Notes under the pieces: model-generated
The model's input: only the letters and a program-made list of their open reading frames with translations
Database searches by the model: none
What the model was told of the DNA's origin: nothing
Made by a program: the position numbers and the translations under genes
Shown: positions 38,563-55,133 of the stretch, piece by piece
Position numbering within the stretch: the first letter of the stretch is position 1
Layout of the letters: each line of letters begins with the position of its first letter
Sequence record: NC_052659.1
DNA length: 64,000 nucleotides
DNA from: Escherichia phage nieznany
Strand: one strand, 5' to 3'

Positions 38563-38569
38563 AAGAAAA

Positions 38570-38595
38570 GGGAACCTTTACGGGTTCCCTTTTTT
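38570..38595. terminator. bidirectional rho-independent terminator at the convergence point
   Basis: GGGAACC-TTTACG-GGTTCCC hairpin flanked by an A-tract upstream and TTTTTT downstream; sits between the last rightward gene and the last leftward gene. Confidence 0.65.
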
Positions 38596-38596
38596 A

Positions 38597-41272
38597 TTAG
38601 TCGTAATATTTCAAACCTGTAATGAACTTCGATCCCCAATCCGCACTTGCGGCGGTGAACGTCAACATCCAAGTTGTAGCTGTACCAGTGAAGACCTCTC
38701 GTTGCACAGTACCATCAGTGTGGTAAATGTCCACGCCAGTATGTCCATTCTTAGGAATAGTGAAGGTAACAGCACTGGTAGTGTCTCGTGCATAAGAACA
38801 AACAAATGGTGTCCCCGCCCAAACTGGATTTGTCATATCACCCATCTCAAGCTGTGGAACCCAAGCAATAAGACCTGCCGTACCATCTCCTGCGAAAGTG
38901 TCTGATCCACTTGCATTCAAAGCTATAATCTCATAGGTTATAGATGCTTGTTTGGCAACTGTCACTTTGTGTAGAATTACACGATACCAACCATTCCCCA
39001 TATCGATTATGTTTGCATCTGCACCTGTAAATGTTCCAGCTACAAGATCATAAGTCCCTTCGTTAATCTCATCTCCTGAAGTCAATTTGAGTTTCACTTT
39101 AGTGATCCCGTCTGGCTTCAAGAATACGGATGCCGCCCAGTGCTTACCTGCTGTAATATCAGAAGCTGTATTCACTGCTGATAAAATATGTTGTCCTGAA
39201 GTTGTAGAAGGTGTTAACTTGTAAGTGTTAGCCGTAGTTCCAACCGGAGAGTTGATTGTTGATGCTGTGACTGTCAAGTTCGTCTTCAACCACGGGGAAG
39301 CTGTTGTCAAGTTATTGTTGATAAAGATATGTGTACGGTTGGCTGCTACAACACGTCTACCTTGTGGAGTTGTACCAACATATTCTAAAGGTGCTACGGG
39401 AGCAGAACTCTCTGTAGGTACAAGGATATCTCCAGAAGCCCTGGCATAACGGTTACTCCTGTTGACCTTTACATCCGTTGGAATAGTTTCTTGCGTCAAA
39501 TCATAGTCCATCACAATCACCACAGCATTCACTGCGAGATAAGAACTATCTTCGGCAGTTACCACACCTTGATAAGTTGCTCTACAACCGATACGACAAT
39601 CCCCATCAGCAACCGCTGTAATAACGCCTGTAACGGGGTCAACTGTTGCTACCGTAGGGTCATTAGAGAAATACTCAACAACCATACCAGGTAAGCTTGC
39701 TGCTCCTGTTGGCGTTATTTCTGCTACCATTGTTTGTGTTGTTCCTACATCCATCGCAGATAAGCTAGGGGTGTAAACGCTCAATGTTGAAGCATATCCT
39801 CCAGAGGTATCTGATAAAGTTGTTCCTTCAGCGTTTAAGGCTGTCATACCTGCATCAAAACCACCTTCTGCATGGAAAGTCATTAAACCAGTAGATGATA
39901 TTGTCATGTTTGCAGGGGCAGAAGAAGTGTATTTAATATTGAAAAGTTTACCTCCTTCTGGGCTAACAGAATGTGTCAACTGTTTAGTTCCACCTACAAT
40001 ACAAATTCCTAAAGAATCTGTAGTTAAGTCAGTTGCCAGAATATCACCCGTAATCACGGAGCTTGCTATTGGTGTGAATTTATTATAGTTTAGACCGCTA
40101 TTGAACAGATACGAGGCTTTCCCATCTTTCCAAATACCGGAATAATACATATCTCCATTATAAACGAAAAAGGTTCCTTGATAACCTAATTGGTTAGTAA
40201 CATCCATATTCAGCGTATGAACGCTTGTGAGCTTGTTTATATCCCAGGAACCCACTCCTTCAGGTTTAACTGGTTTTCCCACTTGAAGTGGATCTCCGCT
40301 CGCAGAATCATACCCCAAACCTAAGTTTGCAGTGTAGTTCTTACCAATAGCCCACAAGGAATTATTGATCCCAACGAAAAAAGAGTGGCGGCTTGGTGGA
40401 AATTTCCATGTTGAGAAACCTGCTGCAAAGGTATTCAGTTTAGTATAGGTTGTTTCTGTATTAGATCTAACATATAAGTAGTTTACTGCACCCGTGCCAC
40501 CGGAGGTATCTCCTACAACTATTGTCTGGGAAACTGTATTGATGTAATCTTTGACATACACTGTTTCAGTAGCGGATATCTTGGCATTGACAAAAGCTGT
40601 TGTTGTGTTATTATTACCTGCTAAACCTTTACTAGCTCCACAAACACGCAAGGTTCCCACATTGTTGACATAAGAGCATTGGTTGTAACCTGCATCAAAA
40701 GCAACTGCTGCACTTGTTATCTGACGAGGAGTAGAAACTTCGTTAGTAGTACTTGCACCTAAACTGCCTACTGTGTTTTGACCAGATCCGTAAAGAACAC
40801 CACTATTCATTAACCAGAGAGTGTTGTTATATCCTCCCTTAACCTCTTTAAGATTGGCTAAAGAGATAGTCCCTGTTATTACAGATGGAAAGCTGGTCCA
40901 AGTAGTTACACATGCGTCCGTACCACCTGCTGCTATAGATCCTACCAATCCTGCTGTCAATCCTGAATATTGCCATCCCCCACTGTTAGTTTTAATAACA
41001 AAACAACGATCTGCGGTAAACACATCCGCTACTACAGTAGAAGCTAAGTGGAAATTATTGAATCGTGCACTACGAGTTCCATCTGCAATCTCACCAAAAA
41101 GGTTTGCGCCTTGAGTAAACAATCTACCATCATTAAGCAAAATTGCTAAACTGCTGTTAGAATTACCAGCATTATCTGGGTAATCTAAAGTGATTACTTT
41201 TTTAACAATACCTGCTGGCAGAGGAACGACACCAGTGCTGGTCATAATAGTAAATATTGGAATTGGAAACAT
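38597..41272 (-). CDS. tail fibre protein (891 aa) with Ig-like segment
   Basis: G/T/S/N-rich beta composition, internal BIG2-like stretch (VATVDPVTGVITAVADGDCRI), last gene of the structural operon. Confidence 0.5.
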   Translation of the reverse strand: MFPIPIFTIMTSTGVVPLPAGIVKKVITLDYPDNAGNSNSSLAILLNDGRLFTQGANLFGEIADGTRSARFNNFHLASTVVADVFTADRCFVIKTNSGGWQYSGLTAGLVGSIAAGGTDACVTTWTSFPSVITGTISLANLKEVKGGYNNTLWLMNSGVLYGSGQNTVGSLGASTTNEVSTPRQITSAAVAFDAGYNQCSYVNNVGTLRVCGASKGLAGNNNTTTAFVNAKISATETVYVKDYINTVSQTIVVGDTSGGTGAVNYLYVRSNTETTYTKLNTFAAGFSTWKFPPSRHSFFVGINNSLWAIGKNYTANLGLGYDSASGDPLQVGKPVKPEGVGSWDINKLTSVHTLNMDVTNQLGYQGTFFVYNGDMYYSGIWKDGKASYLFNSGLNYNKFTPIASSVITGDILATDLTTDSLGICIVGGTKQLTHSVSPEGGKLFNIKYTSSAPANMTISSTGLMTFHAEGGFDAGMTALNAEGTTLSDTSGGYASTLSVYTPSLSAMDVGTTQTMVAEITPTGAASLPGMVVEYFSNDPTVATVDPVTGVITAVADGDCRIGCRATYQGVVTAEDSSYLAVNAVVIVMDYDLTQETIPTDVKVNRSNRYARASGDILVPTESSAPVAPLEYVGTTPQGRRVVAANRTHIFINNNLTTASPWLKTNLTVTASTINSPVGTTANTYKLTPSTTSGQHILSAVNTASDITAGKHWAASVFLKPDGITKVKLKLTSGDEINEGTYDLVAGTFTGADANIIDMGNGWYRVILHKVTVAKQASITYEIIALNASGSDTFAGDGTAGLIAWVPQLEMGDMTNPVWAGTPFVCSYARDTTSAVTFTIPKNGHTGVDIYHTDGTVQREVFTGTATTWMLTFTAASADWGSKFITGLKYYD

Positions 41273-41283
41273 TTAAACCCTCC

Positions 41284-41310
41284 ATAAAAAGAAAGCCCCT
41301 TTCGGGGCTT
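41284..41310 (-). terminator. rho-independent terminator (minus strand)
   Basis: GAAGCCCC-GAAA-GGGGCTTTC hairpin then CUUUUUAU on the minus-strand transcript. Confidence 0.5.
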
Positions 41311-41313
41311 CTG

Positions 41314-43338
41314 TTATCGTGTTACAACAACCATGTCCACGATATCACCCACACCAGGATACGTTAATTGCAAAATTGTTACTGCGTTAGCAGTAGTTGC
41401 TATTTCTGTATCATTTAGTGCTCCATAAGACGCATCTAGTGTAACCGTGTGTCCCGTTGTATCTTGAATCAAATAAATCATTGCTGAAAACGCTTTAGGT
41501 TTTGTAGAGCCAGTGACACCAGGCCATGCTCCAACTGTCAGAGCGTCAGTTACTGTAACAACATACATATTGGAAGTTCCAGAAGGAGTCCAAGATGCTC
41601 CAGAGTTGGCAGTAGTTGTTTCAAGTTCCATGAAACCTGCTGTAACTTTAGTTGGTGTTATAGCTTCCGTAGGATCTGATCCTGATATTTCGATCCAGTT
41701 TCCATCAGAACGACCATACGTCAAGCCGTCTTGAGGGGCTTCTGGTATACTAGGAAGAGTTCCTATAAGTGTCCACGTAGAAGAATCTGTTTTCTTAAAC
41801 ACTGCTCCAGTGGTAGTATTGAAGGCGTAATCATTGATAACACCGTCTCCTGCGACTGGATTAGTTGTTGCTACAAACCATTGTGCGCCGTCCTTACCGT
41901 TGGTCCCATTAGTACCATTGGTTCCGTTTGCTCCTGGATCACCTTTCTCACCTTTATCTCCCTTCTCGCCTTTGTCACCTTTAATACTCCCCATGTCAAC
42001 AAAAGATGCGGAATTGGTGTCTTGATCATAAGTATAGATGTAAAGATTACTGGTGTCTTCAGTTAAATAAGCATCGCCATAGTTATTATAAACGGGGAGA
42101 GCTTCTCCATTTGCAACATGACCTTTAGCTGTAATAGATCTACCACCCAAACTACCCACATTGAGCCACGTTTGATTGTCGTCGATCCACACGTAAAGGT
42201 CATTTTTTACAATGTAGGCATCACCAACCTCCGCTACAGACGGTAGTTCTGAAACATCTGACAATTCGCCATTTACAGAAAGACCTGCACCAACCGGACC
42301 TTGGATACCTTGAACACCCTGTTCACCTTGTGGACCAGGATCTCCCTTATCTCCTTTGTCCCCCTTCTCTCCTTTTAAGGAAGCAACAAAATCTACTTCT
42401 GTCCCTTCATTACCAGCATCCAGCCAACTTTGATATGCAGATTTCCCTTCGTCTCCATCTGTTCCATCTAGACCGTCTTTACCTGCCTCACCTTGTGGAC
42501 CTTGAGGACCAACAATATTACCCATGTTGACCCAAGCTGTCCCATTAGAGACATAAAGATTGCCATTGATAGAATAAGCTTGGCTTACGTTTTCAGAGTT
42601 AGGTTGTGGTAAGTTACTTGTAGAAGGCAAATCCCCACGATAATCAAAACCGTTGGCGTTAACACCAGGTGCTCCCTGTGGCCCTGTAGGACCAACATCG
42701 CCTTTATCGCCTTTTATAGAGGTAAGAAAATCATAAACAGACCCTGTATTACCATCTGCCAACCATACCTCGTAAGCTGATTTACCTTCTGGCCCAAGAG
42801 AAGAAATAAGTTTCCAAACAGAACCATCCCAAGCGTAAATCACATCACCTACAATATAACCATCCCCTGCAACGTTACCTGTAGATGGTAGTTCACTAGT
42901 GCTTGCTAATGATCCTTTAATATTAAGTTGAGCACCAGTATCCCCTTTCAAAGAGGCAAGCCATTGTGCTTCTGTTCCAACAAAACCATTATCAAGTGCG
43001 ATCTGATAAGCCGATTTACCAGCTTCAGGTATTGTTTCCGACAGATCATCAATCTGTTGCTGCACTGCCGTAAACTTGGCATTGATAATTGCTATATCAT
43101 CAGCGGTCCCAACACTTTGCCATGCAAGGGAAGAAATACCACCTGTGGTGGCTGGCGTAGAGTTTGCTGGAACTACTTTAGGAAAAGTTCCTTTCCATTG
43201 GTAATAATTCCCTTCTGCTGCTAACAGCAAAACTTCACGGGAATTACGTAATGTAAAACCTGCCTCAAAGCTGCGACGTTTTCGATAAGTAGCTTCTACC
43301 AGATCGGCTATCGCACTATTAGGTCTTGTTAAATTCAT
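41314..43338 (-). CDS. tail fibre protein with collagen-like Gly-X-Y tracts and triplicated fibre repeats
   Basis: Four Gly-X-Y tracts (e.g. GDKGEKGDKGEKGDPGANGTNGTNGTNGKDG) and three copies of GKSAY..WL..G..G.E..F..SLKG, the lambda-Stf-type phage tail fibre repeat. Confidence 0.65.
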   Translation of the reverse strand: MNLTRPNSAIADLVEATYRKRRSFEAGFTLRNSREVLLLAAEGNYYQWKGTFPKVVPANSTPATTGGISSLAWQSVGTADDIAIINAKFTAVQQQIDDLSETIPEAGKSAYQIALDNGFVGTEAQWLASLKGDTGAQLNIKGSLASTSELPSTGNVAGDGYIVGDVIYAWDGSVWKLISSLGPEGKSAYEVWLADGNTGSVYDFLTSIKGDKGDVGPTGPQGAPGVNANGFDYRGDLPSTSNLPQPNSENVSQAYSINGNLYVSNGTAWVNMGNIVGPQGPQGEAGKDGLDGTDGDEGKSAYQSWLDAGNEGTEVDFVASLKGEKGDKGDKGDPGPQGEQGVQGIQGPVGAGLSVNGELSDVSELPSVAEVGDAYIVKNDLYVWIDDNQTWLNVGSLGGRSITAKGHVANGEALPVYNNYGDAYLTEDTSNLYIYTYDQDTNSASFVDMGSIKGDKGEKGDKGEKGDPGANGTNGTNGTNGKDGAQWFVATTNPVAGDGVINDYAFNTTTGAVFKKTDSSTWTLIGTLPSIPEAPQDGLTYGRSDGNWIEISGSDPTEAITPTKVTAGFMELETTTANSGASWTPSGTSNMYVVTVTDALTVGAWPGVTGSTKPKAFSAMIYLIQDTTGHTVTLDASYGALNDTEIATTANAVTILQLTYPGVGDIVDMVVVTR
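41891..41979 (-). repeat. triplet-periodic (GGN-NNN-NNN) collagen-like coding repeat
   Basis: Visible on the plus strand as CACCTTTCTCACCTTTATCTCCCTTCTCGCCTTTGTCACC; similar tracts near 42297-42372, 42455-42510 and 42670-42725. Confidence 0.6.
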
Positions 43339-43400
43339 TTATCTCTCCTATCATTAGACCATTCTATTGGAAGAAGAGGGGGGAATCCCCCTCTATTCCA

Positions 43401-46400
43401 TTAGGTTGTTGGCACATCTACTACTGGCGTTGGGCGAATAACCGCAGTATTACCTACAGAAACATTACTGGAATCATTAGGTATGGTTTTAATTCTAACT
43501 CCAGCACTTGTAGGCGTTACAATTGGATCTGCAATGTCTATTTTAACTGGGTTAGTCCACGTATCATTATCTTGATAAGGTGCACGAGTAATAACTGTGT
43601 CCAAATCTGCTCCACCTACGCCAGCACCAGGAATACGGATACGTGTCCCTGCTGATAGAGGGTAATGATACAACCAAGAAGCATTTGTTGCTGTCCCGTT
43701 AGGAGTCAAGTTCTGTGTCAGGAAGGTATCTCCTGCCTGTGTAGCTCGAATACCGAAAGCTGGGATATCTGGAATATATGCCCCACTTGTTGTTACAAGG
43801 AAGAACGTATTATCCGCCTTGACTATCATATCACCTTTGTCAAACTCTTTCCCTGTTGGGAAATGCATTCCATCAATGTTTCGACTAGGATTAGGCTCTA
43901 AGTAATAAACTTTGCCCGTTGTCCCTACAATAGCTCCAATACCACCTGCGATATTGGTATACATATTAGCTTCAACATTACAGTTGACACGATGAATATC
44001 CGAGTAACGGCAACGGCTCCACTGTGGACGACCAGTAACCATCGTCTTGCCATCTGGGTAACAGTTTACGTTAACCATTTCAAGAACAGATTTTTCTCTA
44101 CGGAAGAATCCATCATAAAATGTCCCTGGACCAGATTCAGGTTGACCAACACAATCGAAGATATTACAGGTGATGTTAGACATTGAAAGCCAAGAAGCTA
44201 TACCGAACAACTGCAATGCAGCGCAACGAATATTTTCAAAGCTAACTCTGTTTTCATAACCTGGCCCAGCGGAAACTCCTGCAAAAACACGCCCAGTTTT
44301 GGTGTGAATGTTACGAACAGAATAGTTAAAGCATGGGTTTGAAGGTCTACCCTGTGCCGGAACTACCGGATTACCCTCTTCGTCCAGAACTGCGTTAGTT
44401 CCCCACTCCAAATAAATCATACGGATATTACTTGCAAGTGTGCTACCGTCTGTTTTAGGTTCTCCATAAACACCGTCAATCGTAAAATCTTTACTTCCAT
44501 ACATTACAACTGCGCCAGTTGCCAAACCTGTTCCAACAGATACGGTTTGATCTGGATCGCCATGAATGTTTTCGATAGAAATATTACGACCAACTTCTAC
44601 GTGGACAATCTGACGGCAACGTTTTGCAAAAACGTTACGAATTGTAATATTCTTGCAATATTGATCATCAGAGATTCCGTAACCATATGGTCCTTTACCA
44701 GCTACACCGATACCGATACCCCAGTTGGACAGAGGAATAGGAGCGTTAGTCCCATCGATATTAGACAGGTAAATATTCTCAATCACACAACCATCGTCAT
44801 AATGTTTATTGATGACGTTCAGTTCTATTGCATCACCTTGCATGTCCATGAAGGTAAGGTTACGGAAGACACCGCGTGTTACTGGCTCCCCTGTCCCTTG
44901 TTGAAGGATGCCATATAACCCGTTTTTAAAAGTACAATTATCAATTTCAAAAGTACCTGATATTGGGTTGCCTTGGAATACCAAGCTACCAACTTGACCT
45001 GCGCGAGGAGCACCGTCCCACAAACAATCGAACATGCGCACAGCACCACCCCAATACATAACACGAGAGTTACGGAAAGTTGTGCCTTCTACTGTAGCAT
45101 TCTGCACACGATAGTCGCGTTGACCACGGAACACACCCCCACGCAAAGTGATACCTTGAATATCAAAAGAGCTTGTCGTGAAAGTCATATCGCAACCGTA
45201 AGCATCGAGAATCTTACTTTTCGAAGCTTTTGCTGCTAACAGTGCCGCCTGGAAAGCTGCTTCTGGTGTGGTATAGGTGGTTGTATTGTTAGCAAATTCT
45301 GACAAGTAGACAACATCGAATAAATCATTGTATGTTCCACCGCGAGGGGTTAACAGTCCTTCTGTATTAGTTAGAACCCATGCGTTTGGACCTAATCCAC
45401 CGCTTGTCTCCAATGTGTCAGAGGCCAAAATACTTTTTGGTAAACTCCCCGCCCAACGATAACGACCAGCACCACGTCCAATCGTCTGATTTTTAGCTGT
45501 CAGAGTTACATTATTACCAAAGCTTGTAGGCAAATGAACAAACTGTCCACGTTCAACAGCCAGTGCAGAAAGATCTACAGATCCCCCAGAGTAAGTCATT
45601 ACTCCAGAAACAGACAGGGATGTTAAAGTTCCTGTAATGTTAGGAGGTAGTGTGTAGGAAGACTGTGCTACCGGATCATATAGGGCTTTAATACCTGTTA
45701 AAGACTGTCCTGCTGTAGCATAAGCTACCTCATCATCTAACAAACCATACTTACGAGCAATGGTTTGCAGCGGAACTTTATCCATGCTTTCTGTCAGTTC
45801 TTCAGTTTTTGTTTCTAAACTGACAAGACGGTTCTCTAAGTTAGGATCTGTATCTGCGGAAGCTACAATTTTACCAATGTAAGCAAAAAGCTTGTTTGGT
45901 AATCCTGTTGCAGGATCATGCCCCAAAGGTTCAGATAAAATGATTTTACTATCTTCTATGCGGAAAGCTTCTCCCAAAACCTGAATAACACCATTGATCG
46001 TAACAATAGCACTATCAAAGATGTAGGGTGGACTGATTACTGTTTCATAACCAGTTGCACCAGAATATACCCAAGGGGTGACTTCTGTTGCCAATTGTTC
46101 TGTCTTCAGTCCCCACAATACCCAGTTGTTATCTCCTACTGGAGTCCCTTGCATAGGGATTGGGTTAACCAATGTAGCGTTAGGAGCATAGTAATAACCG
46201 CTCAATACCCCATTCTGGAAATAACGAAGTTGGTTAAAAACTGTTTCGTTTGTGCCTTGCGCCCAATCTAATGGGCTTTTAAAGAAAAAGTTGTCAACAA
46301 GGGCTTTTCTCAGGGTTGGTATCAACCCTGATTCTGTTTCAATACTCTCTGTAGCACTTCCATTAATAACATCATGGAGTTGGTTAGATGAGAAAATAAC

Positions 46401-46454
46401 CAGGTCTACGCCCTGTTCGAGAGACGTTGCTGGATATGTTGGGAATGTTGCCAT
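43401..46454 (-). CDS. tailspike protein with right-handed beta-helix (pectate-lyase-like), putative polysaccharide depolymerase
   Basis: 1017 aa; central region with repeated N.T..N / I.N beta-helix rungs (NCTFKNGLYGILQQG, NITIRNVFAKRC, NISIENIHGD); distinct N-terminal anchoring domain. Confidence 0.5.
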   Translation of the reverse strand: MATFPTYPATSLEQGVDLVIFSSNQLHDVINGSATESIETESGLIPTLRKALVDNFFFKSPLDWAQGTNETVFNQLRYFQNGVLSGYYYAPNATLVNPIPMQGTPVGDNNWVLWGLKTEQLATEVTPWVYSGATGYETVISPPYIFDSAIVTINGVIQVLGEAFRIEDSKIILSEPLGHDPATGLPNKLFAYIGKIVASADTDPNLENRLVSLETKTEELTESMDKVPLQTIARKYGLLDDEVAYATAGQSLTGIKALYDPVAQSSYTLPPNITGTLTSLSVSGVMTYSGGSVDLSALAVERGQFVHLPTSFGNNVTLTAKNQTIGRGAGRYRWAGSLPKSILASDTLETSGGLGPNAWVLTNTEGLLTPRGGTYNDLFDVVYLSEFANNTTTYTTPEAAFQAALLAAKASKSKILDAYGCDMTFTTSSFDIQGITLRGGVFRGQRDYRVQNATVEGTTFRNSRVMYWGGAVRMFDCLWDGAPRAGQVGSLVFQGNPISGTFEIDNCTFKNGLYGILQQGTGEPVTRGVFRNLTFMDMQGDAIELNVINKHYDDGCVIENIYLSNIDGTNAPIPLSNWGIGIGVAGKGPYGYGISDDQYCKNITIRNVFAKRCRQIVHVEVGRNISIENIHGDPDQTVSVGTGLATGAVVMYGSKDFTIDGVYGEPKTDGSTLASNIRMIYLEWGTNAVLDEEGNPVVPAQGRPSNPCFNYSVRNIHTKTGRVFAGVSAGPGYENRVSFENIRCAALQLFGIASWLSMSNITCNIFDCVGQPESGPGTFYDGFFRREKSVLEMVNVNCYPDGKTMVTGRPQWSRCRYSDIHRVNCNVEANMYTNIAGGIGAIVGTTGKVYYLEPNPSRNIDGMHFPTGKEFDKGDMIVKADNTFFLVTTSGAYIPDIPAFGIRATQAGDTFLTQNLTPNGTATNASWLYHYPLSAGTRIRIPGAGVGGADLDTVITRAPYQDNDTWTNPVKIDIADPIVTPTSAGVRIKTIPNDSSNVSVGNTAVIRPTPVVDVPTT

Positions 46455-46457
46455 TAA

Positions 46458-46793
46458 TTACCCCTTATTCTGTGTACGTTTAACTATGTCATCTAGCATC
46501 ATTTGGATAGTCGCATTCTTGAGATCCATAATCTTTTCAATTTTTTGCTCAAGGGTGTTGTTATTTGCCATTAATGTAGAGTTAATTTGATTTAGCATCT
46601 GGGTAAGTTCGGCTTTAGTTGCGTAAGTTGATTCAACAAAGACCAACTTCTTCTCTAGCTCTCGACTTTTCTCCTCCATTTCCTCAAGATCAGAGCCGAA
46701 TTTATCCATTTTTTGTTTGAAAAAGAACCAGATGACTCCGATTAAAGGGATAATTGCATCCTTGGCAAGTCCCCATGCTTCTTGAAATTCCAT
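46458..46793 (-). CDS. hypothetical protein with N-terminal TM helix and coiled coil (111 aa)
   Basis: Hydrophobic IIPLIGVIWFFF then E/K-rich heptads. Confidence 0.4.
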   Translation of the reverse strand: MEFQEAWGLAKDAIIPLIGVIWFFFKQKMDKFGSDLEEMEEKSRELEKKLVFVESTYATKAELTQMLNQINSTLMANNNTLEQKIEKIMDLKNATIQMMLDDIVKRTQNKG

Positions 46794-50519: not shown

Positions 50520-50761
50520 TAGTCATCCTCTTTGGTAGATTGTGATCTGCCCCAACGTAAATCAATAAGATTTTTCATGAGGCGAGAAGGGGTTATCATG
50601 AAAACAAAAGCCCAACCCATCCATTCAGGAATTTCTTTTTCTATTCCTAAAAAGATAAACATGCCTGTCATAACCGACATGCCTACAGCGTTCCAGACTT
50701 TAGTAGAACTGACTTTATTATCAGGATATGTACAGAACATACCTATTAAAAATTTTCTCAT
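50519..50761 (-). CDS. small membrane protein (80 aa, two TM helices, charged C-terminus)
   Basis: Hydrophobicity pattern; coupled ORF. Confidence 0.4.
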   Translation of the reverse strand: MRKFLIGMFCTYPDNKVSSTKVWNAVGMSVMTGMFIFLGIEKEIPEWMGWAFVFMITPSRLMKNLIDLRWGRSQSTKEDD

Positions 50762-51066
50762 AGTGCGTTCTCATTACTTTTTAAATCACGAGATACAACT
50801 AATTCCCCAAGGTCTACAGAACCCGCTGAATGCACAAATACAGCAGCACTAAGACTAATGGCAGTAGTACCTGGGGCAATATCAGCAGGTAGGGAATACG
50901 CCCTTTGCGTCTCCTTATCATAGATAACCTTATACCCACCCAAATCCACACCAACTGAGAAGTAAACAACCTCAGATTGTTTAACTCCAAAGTGACGGGC
51001 TACTGCTTGTTTATTGGTTAAGATTCCGGTTGAACCTTTACCACCTTGTGAGAACATTTCGTTCAT
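50758..51066 (-). CDS. hypothetical protein (102 aa)
   Basis: Coupled ORF. Confidence 0.45.
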   Translation of the reverse strand: MNEMFSQGGKGSTGILTNKQAVARHFGVKQSEVVYFSVGVDLGGYKVIYDKETQRAYSLPADIAPGTTAISLSAAVFVHSAGSVDLGELVVSRDLKSNENAL

Positions 51067-52979: not shown

Positions 52980-55133
52980 CTATATATAAAATTTTTGTGT
53001 TGTTACTAAATCTTCTCCAGATTTAGTGGCTAATGTAATTCCACTTATGGTGGCAATCTCAACATTTACCTGTTTAAGAGTGATATCCTGTAAATAAACG
53101 TTCAAAGGCACGTTACCCATATAGAAAACTTGGGATTGAGAATTAACTACTGTGATAGAATCATGCATTATTTGAGGATAGGCCCATATATATTGTGTAA
53201 GTCCGTCAAACTTATTGGCGTTCAACACTATGTTACCTATAATCATCTTCCAAAGATATGTGCGGTAGTTTGATTTAGGATCAAAGCCATACAAAGGTGC
53301 AAGAGTAGCATCTGGAACAAAACCTGAAAGGTAGTGAATATCAGAATATTCAAAACCTAATTTTTCATGTGGTATAGTAATTGCATCAAATGCTTTCATC
53401 ATCTTACCTTCCAGAAGCCAGTCATAACACTCTGAACAGTAAAAATCAAAAGCTTCAGGAATGTAGTAATCAGACGGGAAGTTAACTTTCTCCATCAAAC
53501 CGTTGCCGATAATTGATGGCAAGAACGGAAGCAATGTTACCTTGGCTCCTGGGTAAGTTGCTCTAGTATCTGTTGCAAACTTTGTAACTCTTAATCCTAG
53601 TTTACGAGACAAAAATGCATAGTATTCGTCAAACGGCGTTCCTGTTTTATAATTATCTATTGTTCCTGCATCTTGTGCAAATAAACCTGTTTCTGTGTTG
53701 AATGCCAGTTTGGTAGTGTAATCATATATGCAAGGCATTTTACTTGCTGTATTATACCACCACCAAGGCTCACCAATTTGAATGACAACTGGAATATTAT
53801 TAGCTTGCGAAATAGATGCTATTTTATTAATAACATTTTGCAAATATTCCATACCTTCGTCAATAGTTGGAGACAACACATAACTAGGAGGTTTATACCC
53901 TGTTGCTGCAAGAGCATCGTTCCAATCATGCTGAACCCATTCTACAGGACAAACTGTGCTCATCAATTCAAAACTTAAAGAGTTCATTATTGTGTAGCCC
54001 TTCTCGTTTGCTATAGAATGGAAGCTGTTAAGCCAAGCTTCTGTAGCCGGATTCAGGAAAACAGATTTATTTAAAGCCCAAGATGTTCCATTCCATGAGA
54101 ACTCATAATAGTGAGACATTCCGTTATAATGGTTAATCATCCCACGATAACCTAGTGCATATGTATTATAAATAACTCTCTCTGGAGTCAGGTTATACAT
54201 ATCATCATAAGATGTGCACATGCGAATATCATGTTCAGGCTGGACAAGGTTGCTGACTTTCATCATACTGTAACCAGAGGTAGGTTCAAGAAGAGTGAAA
54301 GTAAACCAAGCCTCTTGACTGTCAATAGGTACAACCTCTTCTATTTCTTCGTACCTTGCTGTAATCAAAGAGAAGAAAATATTATCTACAGCACTCATAT
54401 CCAAAGGAATATCATTATTAGGGCCAGAAAAGATATTACCAAAATCTAACTTGATTGTAGCTGTTTTACCATCTTCTGAAATATCTAAAGCGTAGAATCC
54501 TAAACTGACATAATGAACACTTTTATCCAGGAGAGTTACAGTCAAAGTCGGCACCAAAGGTTCTTCTTTAAAACCTGGCATGTTTTGACTAATTTCCATT
54601 TTAAACCAAAGTTTCTCTGAACTTAAATCTGTGTGGGGTAAATACCCAACACCTTTATGGTCATATTTGTCAACTGTGCTCCAGATAACCCCTGCCAAAC
54701 CTGCTGTTGTTCTGTTTACAAATCTTGCAGTAAAAGAGTCTCCATGAGATACAATAGAACAACTTTCCGTTGCTTGAGAATCTATTGTCCAATACATAGG
54801 AGAGAACATTTTAACGTCTTTTGTAGTCCAAGTTATTGGAGTAGTATTTTCTTGGATAGTAGTTATAATACAATTGATGGTTGTTTCAACCATCATATTA
54901 TTTTGACTAATCCCTGAAACTTGGAGGGAGAAGTTAAGATCTATTGAGTTCTTTGGTCGTTCAAATACTTCAACCACAATAGTAGCAGAATCAGCATCAT
55001 CAGGGAACACAAGTGTTCCCGATTTTGCAATATAATCTCTACCAGCGACTGCTGTTCCGTCAACAGTCGTGTAGTTAAATGAACTCGCATTTACTCTCTT
55101 GTCTCGCGTGACAGTAAATATAGCTTGTTTCAT
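52980..55133 (-). CDS. large tail-associated protein (717 aa), possible enzymatic domain
   Basis: Aromatic-rich globular C-terminal half (IGEPWWWYNT); no motif assignable by eye. Confidence 0.4.
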   Translation of the reverse strand: MKQAIFTVTRDKRVNASSFNYTTVDGTAVAGRDYIAKSGTLVFPDDADSATIVVEVFERPKNSIDLNFSLQVSGISQNNMMVETTINCIITTIQENTTPITWTTKDVKMFSPMYWTIDSQATESCSIVSHGDSFTARFVNRTTAGLAGVIWSTVDKYDHKGVGYLPHTDLSSEKLWFKMEISQNMPGFKEEPLVPTLTVTLLDKSVHYVSLGFYALDISEDGKTATIKLDFGNIFSGPNNDIPLDMSAVDNIFFSLITARYEEIEEVVPIDSQEAWFTFTLLEPTSGYSMMKVSNLVQPEHDIRMCTSYDDMYNLTPERVIYNTYALGYRGMINHYNGMSHYYEFSWNGTSWALNKSVFLNPATEAWLNSFHSIANEKGYTIMNSLSFELMSTVCPVEWVQHDWNDALAATGYKPPSYVLSPTIDEGMEYLQNVINKIASISQANNIPVVIQIGEPWWWYNTASKMPCIYDYTTKLAFNTETGLFAQDAGTIDNYKTGTPFDEYYAFLSRKLGLRVTKFATDTRATYPGAKVTLLPFLPSIIGNGLMEKVNFPSDYYIPEAFDFYCSECYDWLLEGKMMKAFDAITIPHEKLGFEYSDIHYLSGFVPDATLAPLYGFDPKSNYRTYLWKMIIGNIVLNANKFDGLTQYIWAYPQIMHDSITVVNSQSQVFYMGNVPLNVYLQDITLKQVNVEIATISGITLATKSGEDLVTTQKFYI

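Follow-up and report, generated by a model that had tools for sequence, protein, structure and literature searches.

A mosaic beta-helix tailspike of a Phapecoctavirus, likely directed at colanic acid

Which polysaccharide, if any, does the beta-helix of a 1017-residue phage tail protein degrade? This question is raised by the gene at 43401-46454 of the window, by which we mean the whole 64,000-nucleotide stretch of phage DNA analysed here. The reading frame runs on the minus strand from ATG to TAA and encodes 1017 amino acids, and its coordinates are exact. The gene is real and already known, its sequence and its interpretation both being present in databases and papers: Escherichia phage tuntematon (MN850618, Phapecoctavirus) is 100% identical to the window, and tuntematon_130 is already on record as "putative colanic acid-degrading protein". 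In total, 68 phage records carry the gene, with nucleotide identity of ~97% for most and 100% in tuntematon. Since it has been annotated and described, we count the gene as ordinary.

43401..46454, minus strand: whole gene, 1017 codons plus TAA, the same as tuntematon_130 / QHR71986.1
46461..46466, minus strand: ribosome-binding site AAGGGG, 6 nt 5' of the ATG
43375..43394, minus strand: G+C-rich hairpin, AGAGGGGG-ATT-CCCCCCTCT, directly 3' of the stop codon

ORF 46458-46793, upstream and lipoprotein-like, has its stop codon between AAGGGG and the ATG of the tailspike gene, indicating that both genes are tightly coupled. The hairpin is terminator-like with a weak T tract, and similar hairpins are found 3' of the next two genes as well. 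A promoter scan gave hits no more numerous than in shuffles, and a tandem repeat search gave three trivial arrays only, of ~2 copies each; the rung periodicity described below is a feature of the protein, not of the DNA. The plus-strand ORFs within the gene (43326-43655, 44547-44918, 44973-45239 and 46252-46590) had no PHROG match and were regarded as chance.

Regarding the fold, the initial annotation had read a repeated beta-rung pattern in the central 400-500 residues and proposed structure prediction as a check. The AlphaFold2 model of the monomer contains a run of short strands at aa ~415-800 (pLDDT mostly 75-94), giving a predicted beta-helix of ~385 residues that is indeed present but is displaced from the centre towards the C-terminus; over its first 226 residues the model had pLDDT <50, and this part was left uninterpreted as unreliable. 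The top match of this model in the PDB by Foldseek was 6E0V, "colanidase tailspike protein gp150" (E=2e-36, target-normalised TM 0.64), followed by the beta-helix tailspikes of CBA120, Sf6 and HK620, and PL6 alginate lyases appeared as weak fold matches (E~3e-4). The suggested likeness to pectate lyases is confined to the general beta-helix fold, and the characterised relative is reported as a hydrolase, not a lyase of the pectate-lyase type (PMC13450770, citing Xu et al. 2025). The rung pattern itself is real: besides the model, the motif [hydrophobic]-x-[hydrophobic]-x-[N/D/G]-[hydrophobic] (for instance, FEIDNC, ITIRNV, ISIENI, VSFENI and LSMSNI) was found in 15 copies in aa 420-800 compared to 4.8 +/- 2.0 in segment shuffles, none of 2000 reaching 15, a count that is illustrative because the motif was picked after reading the sequence. 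The Pfam Beta_helix profile PF13229 scored 15.8 bits, under its gathering score of 25.9, so that the predicted fold is backed by the model and not by this profile.

The protein is a mosaic tailspike, in which six parts were distinguished:

45855..46454, minus strand: N-terminal anchor module, aa 1-200, by homology to N-termini of the phi92-gp150 type
45771..45854, minus strand: linker, aa 201-228, with a predicted helix at aa 205-223
45360..45770, minus strand: internal double module of CBA120/G7C type, aa 229-365, by profile and structure-database matches
45213..45359, minus strand: neck, aa 366-414, with predicted helices at 384-388 and 397-410, leading into the beta-helix
44055..45212, minus strand: right-handed parallel beta-helix, aa 415-800, the presumed catalytic and substrate-binding body
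43404..44054, minus strand: C-terminal domain, aa 801-1017, which as far as aa ~1000 has a homologous counterpart in the C-terminal part of phi92 gp150

The separate N-terminal anchor that had been proposed is borne out by aa 1-200, which are ~77% identical to the N-terminus of the ~800-aa proteins of the phi92-gp150 type and form a module common to dozens of proteins with other C-terminal domains; aa 11-127 match the N-terminus (residues 14-132) of a tail fibre chain of phiTE in 9CUY, a baseplate structure. From aa 201 onward, the protein departs from phi92-type gp150 by an extra stretch of ~225 aa (aa 201-425) composed of the helix, the two CBA120/G7C-type modules and the neck, its length being 1017 aa against ~804 aa of phi92 gp150. 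Within this stretch, aa 229-365 reproduce, at an internal position, the pair of N-terminal modules seen in tailspikes of the CBA120 TSP1/3/4 and G7C gp63.1 type, Pfam PF18668 Tail_spike_N passing its gathering score at aa 302-361 (37.6 bits against a cut-off of 25). The first ~150-190 residues of CBA120 TSP1, TSP3 and TSP4 and of G7C gp63.1 align with aa 226-400 (E about 1e-26 to 1e-30). Those chains have the Tail_spike_N modules at the N-terminus, whereas in the present protein the modules occupy an internal position after a 200-aa anchor of a different type, and the CBA120/G7C beta-helices are not specifically related to the one studied here. The final ~20 residues of the protein are variable and of low confidence.

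The beta-helix and the C-terminal domain belong to a known enzyme family. PHROG 6117 "colanic acid degradation" matched aa 186-997 (E=4e-282), and by sequence 6E0V, the apo structure of gp150 of the Justusliebigvirus phi92 (solved also with a colanic acid repeat unit as 6E0W), matched aa 426-1000 (E=2e-78). Together with the fold match, these results uphold the initial view of a polysaccharide-degrading beta-helix tailspike. Three motifs are common to this protein and phi92 gp150, whose homology with it runs the full length of the beta-helix and the C-terminal domain:

44817..44837, minus strand: GDAIELN motif, aa 540-546, from the alignment with phage relatives and WcaM-like proteins
44706..44723, minus strand: WGIGIG motif, aa 578-583, kept in phage colanidase relatives and WcaM-like proteins
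44595..44615, minus strand: RQxxHxE motif, aa 614-620, from the same alignment of 39 proteins

D541, E544 and N546 were conserved in 96-100% of 28 phage relatives and in 91-100% of 11 WcaM-like proteins, and H618 and E620 were invariant (39/39 aligned proteins); these five positions are candidate active-site residues. Considering the 28 relatives only, D541, E544, N546, W578, G579, R614, Q615, H618 and E620 were each conserved in at least 93%. The NCBIfam model of WcaM, a colanic acid cluster protein, matched aa 502-662 (E~1e-24), and E. coli WcaM (TIGR04004) has the core beta-helix rungs in common with the tailspike, including the invariant D, E, N, H and E positions; it is, however, a 464-aa bacterial protein that has neither the anchor nor the C-terminal domain. 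Identity as WcaM itself was rejected, the equivalog models TIGR04004 / NF007517 giving 85-87 bits against cut-offs of 795-808 and covering profile positions ~153-310 only. As judged from sequence, the protein is a relative of WcaM, not WcaM.

Among phages, the "putative colanic acid-degrading protein" of Phapecoctaviruses (phAPEC8, ESCO13, ABPW7 gp174 and others) is the same gene, with full-length nucleotide identity of 97-100% in about 60 records; tuntematon is a member of this set and shows no substantial difference. The catalytic part is at least 99% identical across 59 phage records, and among relatives with overall identities of 78-86% no other part is as well conserved (89-94%, compared to 57-74% for the linker modules), a pattern in line with a target that, like colanic acid, does not vary. 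The tailspike colanidase of Bonnellvirus (J8-65-like podophages) and its Enterobacter phage homologues have catalytic domains 47-52% identical to that of the present protein and nearer to it than phi92-type gp150, which is only ~33-37% identical in the catalytic part; these homologues differ in being shorter, in having other N-terminal adaptors (podovirus tail) and in coming from much smaller genomes (~41-76 kb). The specificity of tailspikes can shift at ~33-37% identity. Of the phi92-type and Phapecoctavirus proteins, enzymatic activity has been reported for phi92 gp150 only.

The tailspike also occupies the same position in the tail cluster as phi92 gp150. The gene order of baseplate wedge, baseplate protein, gpH-like fibre, fibre assembly protein, lipoprotein, colanidase, collagen fibre and large tail protein is identical in the phi92-like phage alia (Stephanstirmvirinae tail fibre cluster). 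As initially described, three very large tail proteins (1017, 674 and 891 aa) adjoin here, and two more, of 717 and 958 aa, are encoded upstream.

41314..43338, minus strand: 674-aa tail fibre with collagen repeats, whose N-terminus is a Tail_spike_N module and in which no enzyme domain was recognised
38597..41272, minus strand: 891-aa tail protein with an RCC1-like propeller and Big_2 Ig-like domains, its C-terminal region resembling the RcGTA head spike fibre

Sequence searches of the 674-aa and 891-aa neighbours gave no recognisable depolymerase domain in either and so lend no support to the initial suggestion that the three proteins carry several receptor-degrading specificities; going by sequence, the 1017-aa protein is the only detectable beta-helix enzyme among them. 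The phage nevertheless probably has several receptor-binding proteins. An anchor comparison had also been proposed, and for the 674-aa fibre it gave a short Tail_spike_N stretch in common with the colanidase (aa 332-359, E=7e-4) but not the aa 1-200 anchor.

We consider it quite likely that the gene encodes a Phapecoctavirus colanidase tailspike, the positional counterpart of phi92 gp150. Because its family is that of the phi92 gp150 colanidase, colanic acid, a slime exopolysaccharide also called M-antigen, is the expected and likely substrate; the initial annotation was right in proposing a depolymerase, although the family points to colanic acid and not to a K capsule or O-antigen. For phi92 gp150, colanic acid is reported to be hydrolysed at its beta-1,4 Glc-Fuc bond (PMC13450770, citing Xu et al. 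2025). The ABPW7 gene, ~97.5% identical to the present one, was assigned to 6E0V by HHpred, and colanic acid was proposed as the receptor (PMC11126041). We infer the trimer state, the virion location and the hydrolytic chemistry of the tailspike: the N-terminal ~200 residues would anchor the spike, presumably a trimer, at the edge of the baseplate, the helix and the two CBA120/G7C-type modules would serve as a spacer, and the beta-helix (aa ~415-800) with the C-terminal domain would bind colanic acid and cut it endolytically, so that the virion could tunnel through the Rcs-stress slime layer of E. coli to LPS-core or ECA receptors. ECA and LPS outer core, not colanic acid, are the proposed receptors of these phages (PMC12753057, PMC10844046), so colanic acid would then be a barrier to be removed rather than an essential receptor.

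The same fold and family could act in the Phapecoctavirus/Bonnellvirus clade on a different surface glycan of enterobacteria, such as ECA, a capsule, an O-antigen or some further exopolysaccharide, or on another bond of colanic acid, which we regard as unlikely. Such a shift would be in keeping with the distance from the characterised phi92-type enzyme (~33-37% identity), with the origin of the nearest non-Phapecoctavirus relatives in Enterobacter, Kosakonia and Cronobacter phages, and with the proposal of ECA as a receptor of these phages (PMC12753057). However, homology spans the entire catalytic and C-terminal region, the motifs recur in WcaM of the colanic acid gene cluster, and the related podophage proteins are annotated as tailspike colanidases; moreover, the domain is nearly invariant in phages isolated on many E. 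coli serotypes, which argues against serotype-specific targets.

It is also rather improbable that the modules at aa 229-365 are a docking platform for another receptor-binding protein, or that the specificity of the clade for substrate or bond differs from that of phi92 gp150. A 102-aa single-module protein encoded at 50758-51066 is a candidate docking partner. Docking of the downstream collagen-like fibre was considered and rejected: the fibre of alia shares this N-terminus (the two fibres are 60% identical overall), yet the alia colanidase carries no insert, and comparative data give such docking no support, a result that concerns this fibre and not other partners.

A spike that binds polysaccharide through its beta-helix but has lost the ability to cut it is very unlikely; the sub-threshold Beta_helix match would allow it, whereas every acidic and His residue that phage relatives have in common with WcaM-like proteins is retained, and conservation of the catalytic part is strong. 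A soluble enzyme set free at lysis and not attached to the virion is most unlikely of all, as the N-terminal module is common to many tail proteins of the subfamily and homologous to the phiTE tail fibre N-terminus in a baseplate structure, and the gene lies inside a baseplate and fibre operon, even though gp150 was not located within the fibre II density by a 2026 cryo-EM study of phi92 (PMC13450770), so that virion attachment is putative for this reference protein as well.

As a discovery, the colanidase tailspike carries little weight, since its sequence is deposited and annotated, the structure of a relative is solved and near-identical Phapecoctavirus proteins have already been assigned to the colanidase family. 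The clade is nonetheless of practical interest, being only ~35% identical to the characterised enzyme, and colanidases are used in the production of colanic acid oligosaccharides. [quoted passage not shown] If the internal modules were a docking platform, the spike complex of Phapecoctaviruses would be branched, like those of Ackermannviridae and G7C. The gene illustrates module shuffling, in which a resident anchor is combined with a cassette of tailspike type, the catalytic part of which most resembles the enzymes of podophages.

The 1017-aa ORF proposed in the initial annotation is a real gene running from ATG to TAA (43401–46454, minus strand), and the following features were located on it or next to it.

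45855–46454, minus strand: anchor (aa 1–200)
6 nt upstream of the ATG, minus strand: ribosome-binding site AAGGGG
43375–43394, minus strand: G+C-rich hairpin after the stop codon

The stop codon of an upstream 111-aa lipoprotein-like ORF lies between AAGGGG and the ATG. Opposite-strand ORFs within the gene matched no phage protein family, and no DNA-level tandem repeats of note were found in it. A G+C-rich hairpin also follows each of the next two large tail genes (41292–41311 and 38566–38593, minus strand), so that every one of three consecutive large tail genes ends in one, the last two with clear T tracts; such hairpins between fibre genes suggest graded termination or mRNA stabilisation. 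Near 38 kb the sign of the GC skew flips, in keeping with the run of minus-strand genes that follows.

In an AlphaFold2 model based on a 16-sequence alignment, successive short strands were predicted at aa ~415–800 (pLDDT mostly 75–94), and the best solved-structure match of the model was 6E0V, ‘colanidase tailspike protein gp150 of phage Phi92’ (E = 2e-36), followed by other beta-helix tailspikes. The protein matched PHROG 6117, ‘colanic acid degradation’ (E = 4e-282), and phi92 gp150 (PDB 6E0V/6E0W, E = 2e-78 across aa 426–1000), with the C-terminal domain at aa ~800–1000 homologous to that of gp150. A rung-like motif, picked after reading the sequence, occurred 15 times compared to 4.8 ± 2.0 in shuffles. 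These matches indicate that the initial annotation was correct in calling the protein a beta-helix depolymerase tailspike; the capsule or O-antigen that it named as substrate was not borne out, the specific assignment being colanidase, an activity predicted for this clade, which is ~35% identical to the characterised enzyme. The family is small: of 1.84 billion representative proteins searched, 72 match at E ≤ 1e-3, and 27 of these still do so at E ≤ 1e-30. The shorter matches (~400–470 aa) are WcaM or WcaM-like proteins, encoded in the colanic acid gene cluster of bacteria; the WcaM models hit aa 502–662 with E ~1e-24, a match that falls far short of the equivalog cut-off. When the protein was aligned with 28 phage-type proteins and with 11 WcaM-like ones, the following residues proved to be conserved in both groups: D541, E544 and N546 (GDAIELN), W578–G583 (WGIGIG), R614, Q615, H618 and E620. 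They are taken here as a candidate active-site cluster.

The tailspike is already known from an annotated database entry and from discussion in the literature. The gene is 100% identical in Escherichia phage tuntematon (MN850618; Phapecoctavirus, Stephanstirmvirinae; record position minus 21622 equals window position), where it is tuntematon_130, ‘putative colanic acid-degrading protein’, and all surrounding ORFs that were compared with the MN850618 annotation match as well. Tuntematon was isolated from Danish wastewater on E. coli K-12 MG1655 (PMC7552041). The gene was present in 68 phage records, mostly at ~97% nucleotide identity. Near-identical Phapecoctavirus genomes appear in the databases under the names ‘Acinetobacter phage vB_AbaM_ABPW7’ and ‘Campylobacter phage B15’, with further ones named as Klebsiella or Shigella phages; that Acinetobacter is the host has already been doubted in a review (PMC11126041). 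ABPW7 gp174, from a ~97.5% identical gene, was previously matched to 6E0V, and colanic acid was proposed as the receptor (PMC11126041).

The anchor (aa 1–200) shares ~77% identity with the N-terminal part of phi92-gp150-type proteins of ~800 aa, and in a search of 5.8 billion proteins it was common to dozens of proteins with different C-terminal domains (precomputed Pfam: PF12708, PF13229, PF05048, PF13472 and PF27114), so that, as judged from these sequences, its boundary looks like a cassette-exchange point. Residues 11–127 resemble a stretch (residues 14–132; E = 2.6e-19) of one chain in 9CUY, the baseplate structure of phiTE. This 793-aa chain, labelled ‘putative tail fiber protein’, is probably the long tail fibre of phiTE, whose N-terminal residues were modelled at the baseplate (PMC11972413). 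The same chain (chain g) matches two adjacent genes, its N-terminus resembling the colanidase anchor (45855–46454, minus strand) and its C-terminus that of a 674-aa collagen-like fibre (41314–43338, minus strand), indicating that in this phage anchor and fibre tip sit on separate proteins. Compared to phi92-type gp150, aa 201–425 are extra: a helix is predicted at aa 205–223, aa 226–400 align with the first ~150–190 residues of CBA120 TSP1, TSP3 and TSP4 and of G7C gp63.1 (E about 1e-26 to 1e-30), and Pfam Tail_spike_N matches aa 302–361 (37.6 bits, cut-off 25). A 102-aa ORF directly upstream of the baseplate wedge genes (50758–51066, minus strand; PHROG 7992, E = 9e-61) consists of only the first ~94 residues, the first N-terminal module, of Ackermannviridae/G7C-type tailspikes and is 42% identical to colanidase aa 230–302; possibly it is a small adaptor or what remains of a lost tailspike. 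The corresponding position in phage alia is occupied by a 49-aa gene that carries the annotation of a tail-fibre fragment.

The tail genes are ordered baseplate wedge, baseplate protein, gpH-like fibre, fibre assembly protein, lipoprotein-like protein, colanidase, collagen-like fibre and large tail protein, identically to phi92-like phage alia, making the colanidase gene the positional counterpart of phi92 gp150. The 674-aa neighbour has an N-terminal Tail_spike_N module plus collagen repeats, and the 891-aa neighbour (38597–41272, minus strand) has an RCC1-like beta-propeller (aa ~40–330), Big_2 Ig-like domains (aa ~500–590) and a C-terminal region (aa 580–831) resembling the Rhodobacter gene transfer agent (RcGTA) head spike fibre Rcc01080 (6TB9, E = 4e-14). 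Regarding the several receptor-degrading specificities that had been envisaged, multiple receptor-binding proteins are likely, but no depolymerase was detectable in these two adjacent large proteins. An upstream 717-aa protein (52980–55133, minus strand) carries a Calx-beta domain, NCTSP_N and a ‘non-contractile tail sheath protein’ TIM barrel (PF23845, E = 4e-79), possibly a second carbohydrate-active module of the tail cluster.

We propose that the spike, presumably trimeric and anchored at the baseplate, would bind colanic acid along the beta-helix and cleave the polymer endolytically, clearing the slime layer and bringing LPS core or ECA within reach of the other fibres. According to PMC13450770, which cites Xu et al. 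2025, phi92 gp150 cuts colanic acid by hydrolysis at the beta-1,4 Glc-Fuc linkage; within the cryo-EM density of phi92, however, even gp150 could not be assigned a position (PMC13450770). Stephanstirmvirinae have been described with conserved fibres of glycosidase and colanidase activity (PMC10844046), and a screen targeting phage-resistant E. coli ST410 strains, including one colanic-acid-overproducing mutant, yielded Phapecoctaviruses (PMC12753057).

On sequence comparison, the colanidase is a mosaic. Its catalytic part (43404–45179, minus strand) is 49–52% identical to Enterobacter phage proteins and 47–49% to those of Bonnellvirus podophages (J8-65, ~48%), some of which are annotated ‘tailspike colanidase’, but only ~33% to the phi92-like sister genus, whereas the anchor is closest to the phi92 type and follows the phage’s own subfamily, indicating horizontal exchange of the enzymatic cassette. 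Among relatives at 78–86% overall identity, the catalytic part was the most conserved (89–94%) and the linker modules the least (57–74%), and the catalytic part was at least 99% identical in 59 phage records. In depolymerases with serotype specificity the pattern is usually the reverse; the conservation seen here would fit a target whose chemistry does not vary, such as colanic acid.
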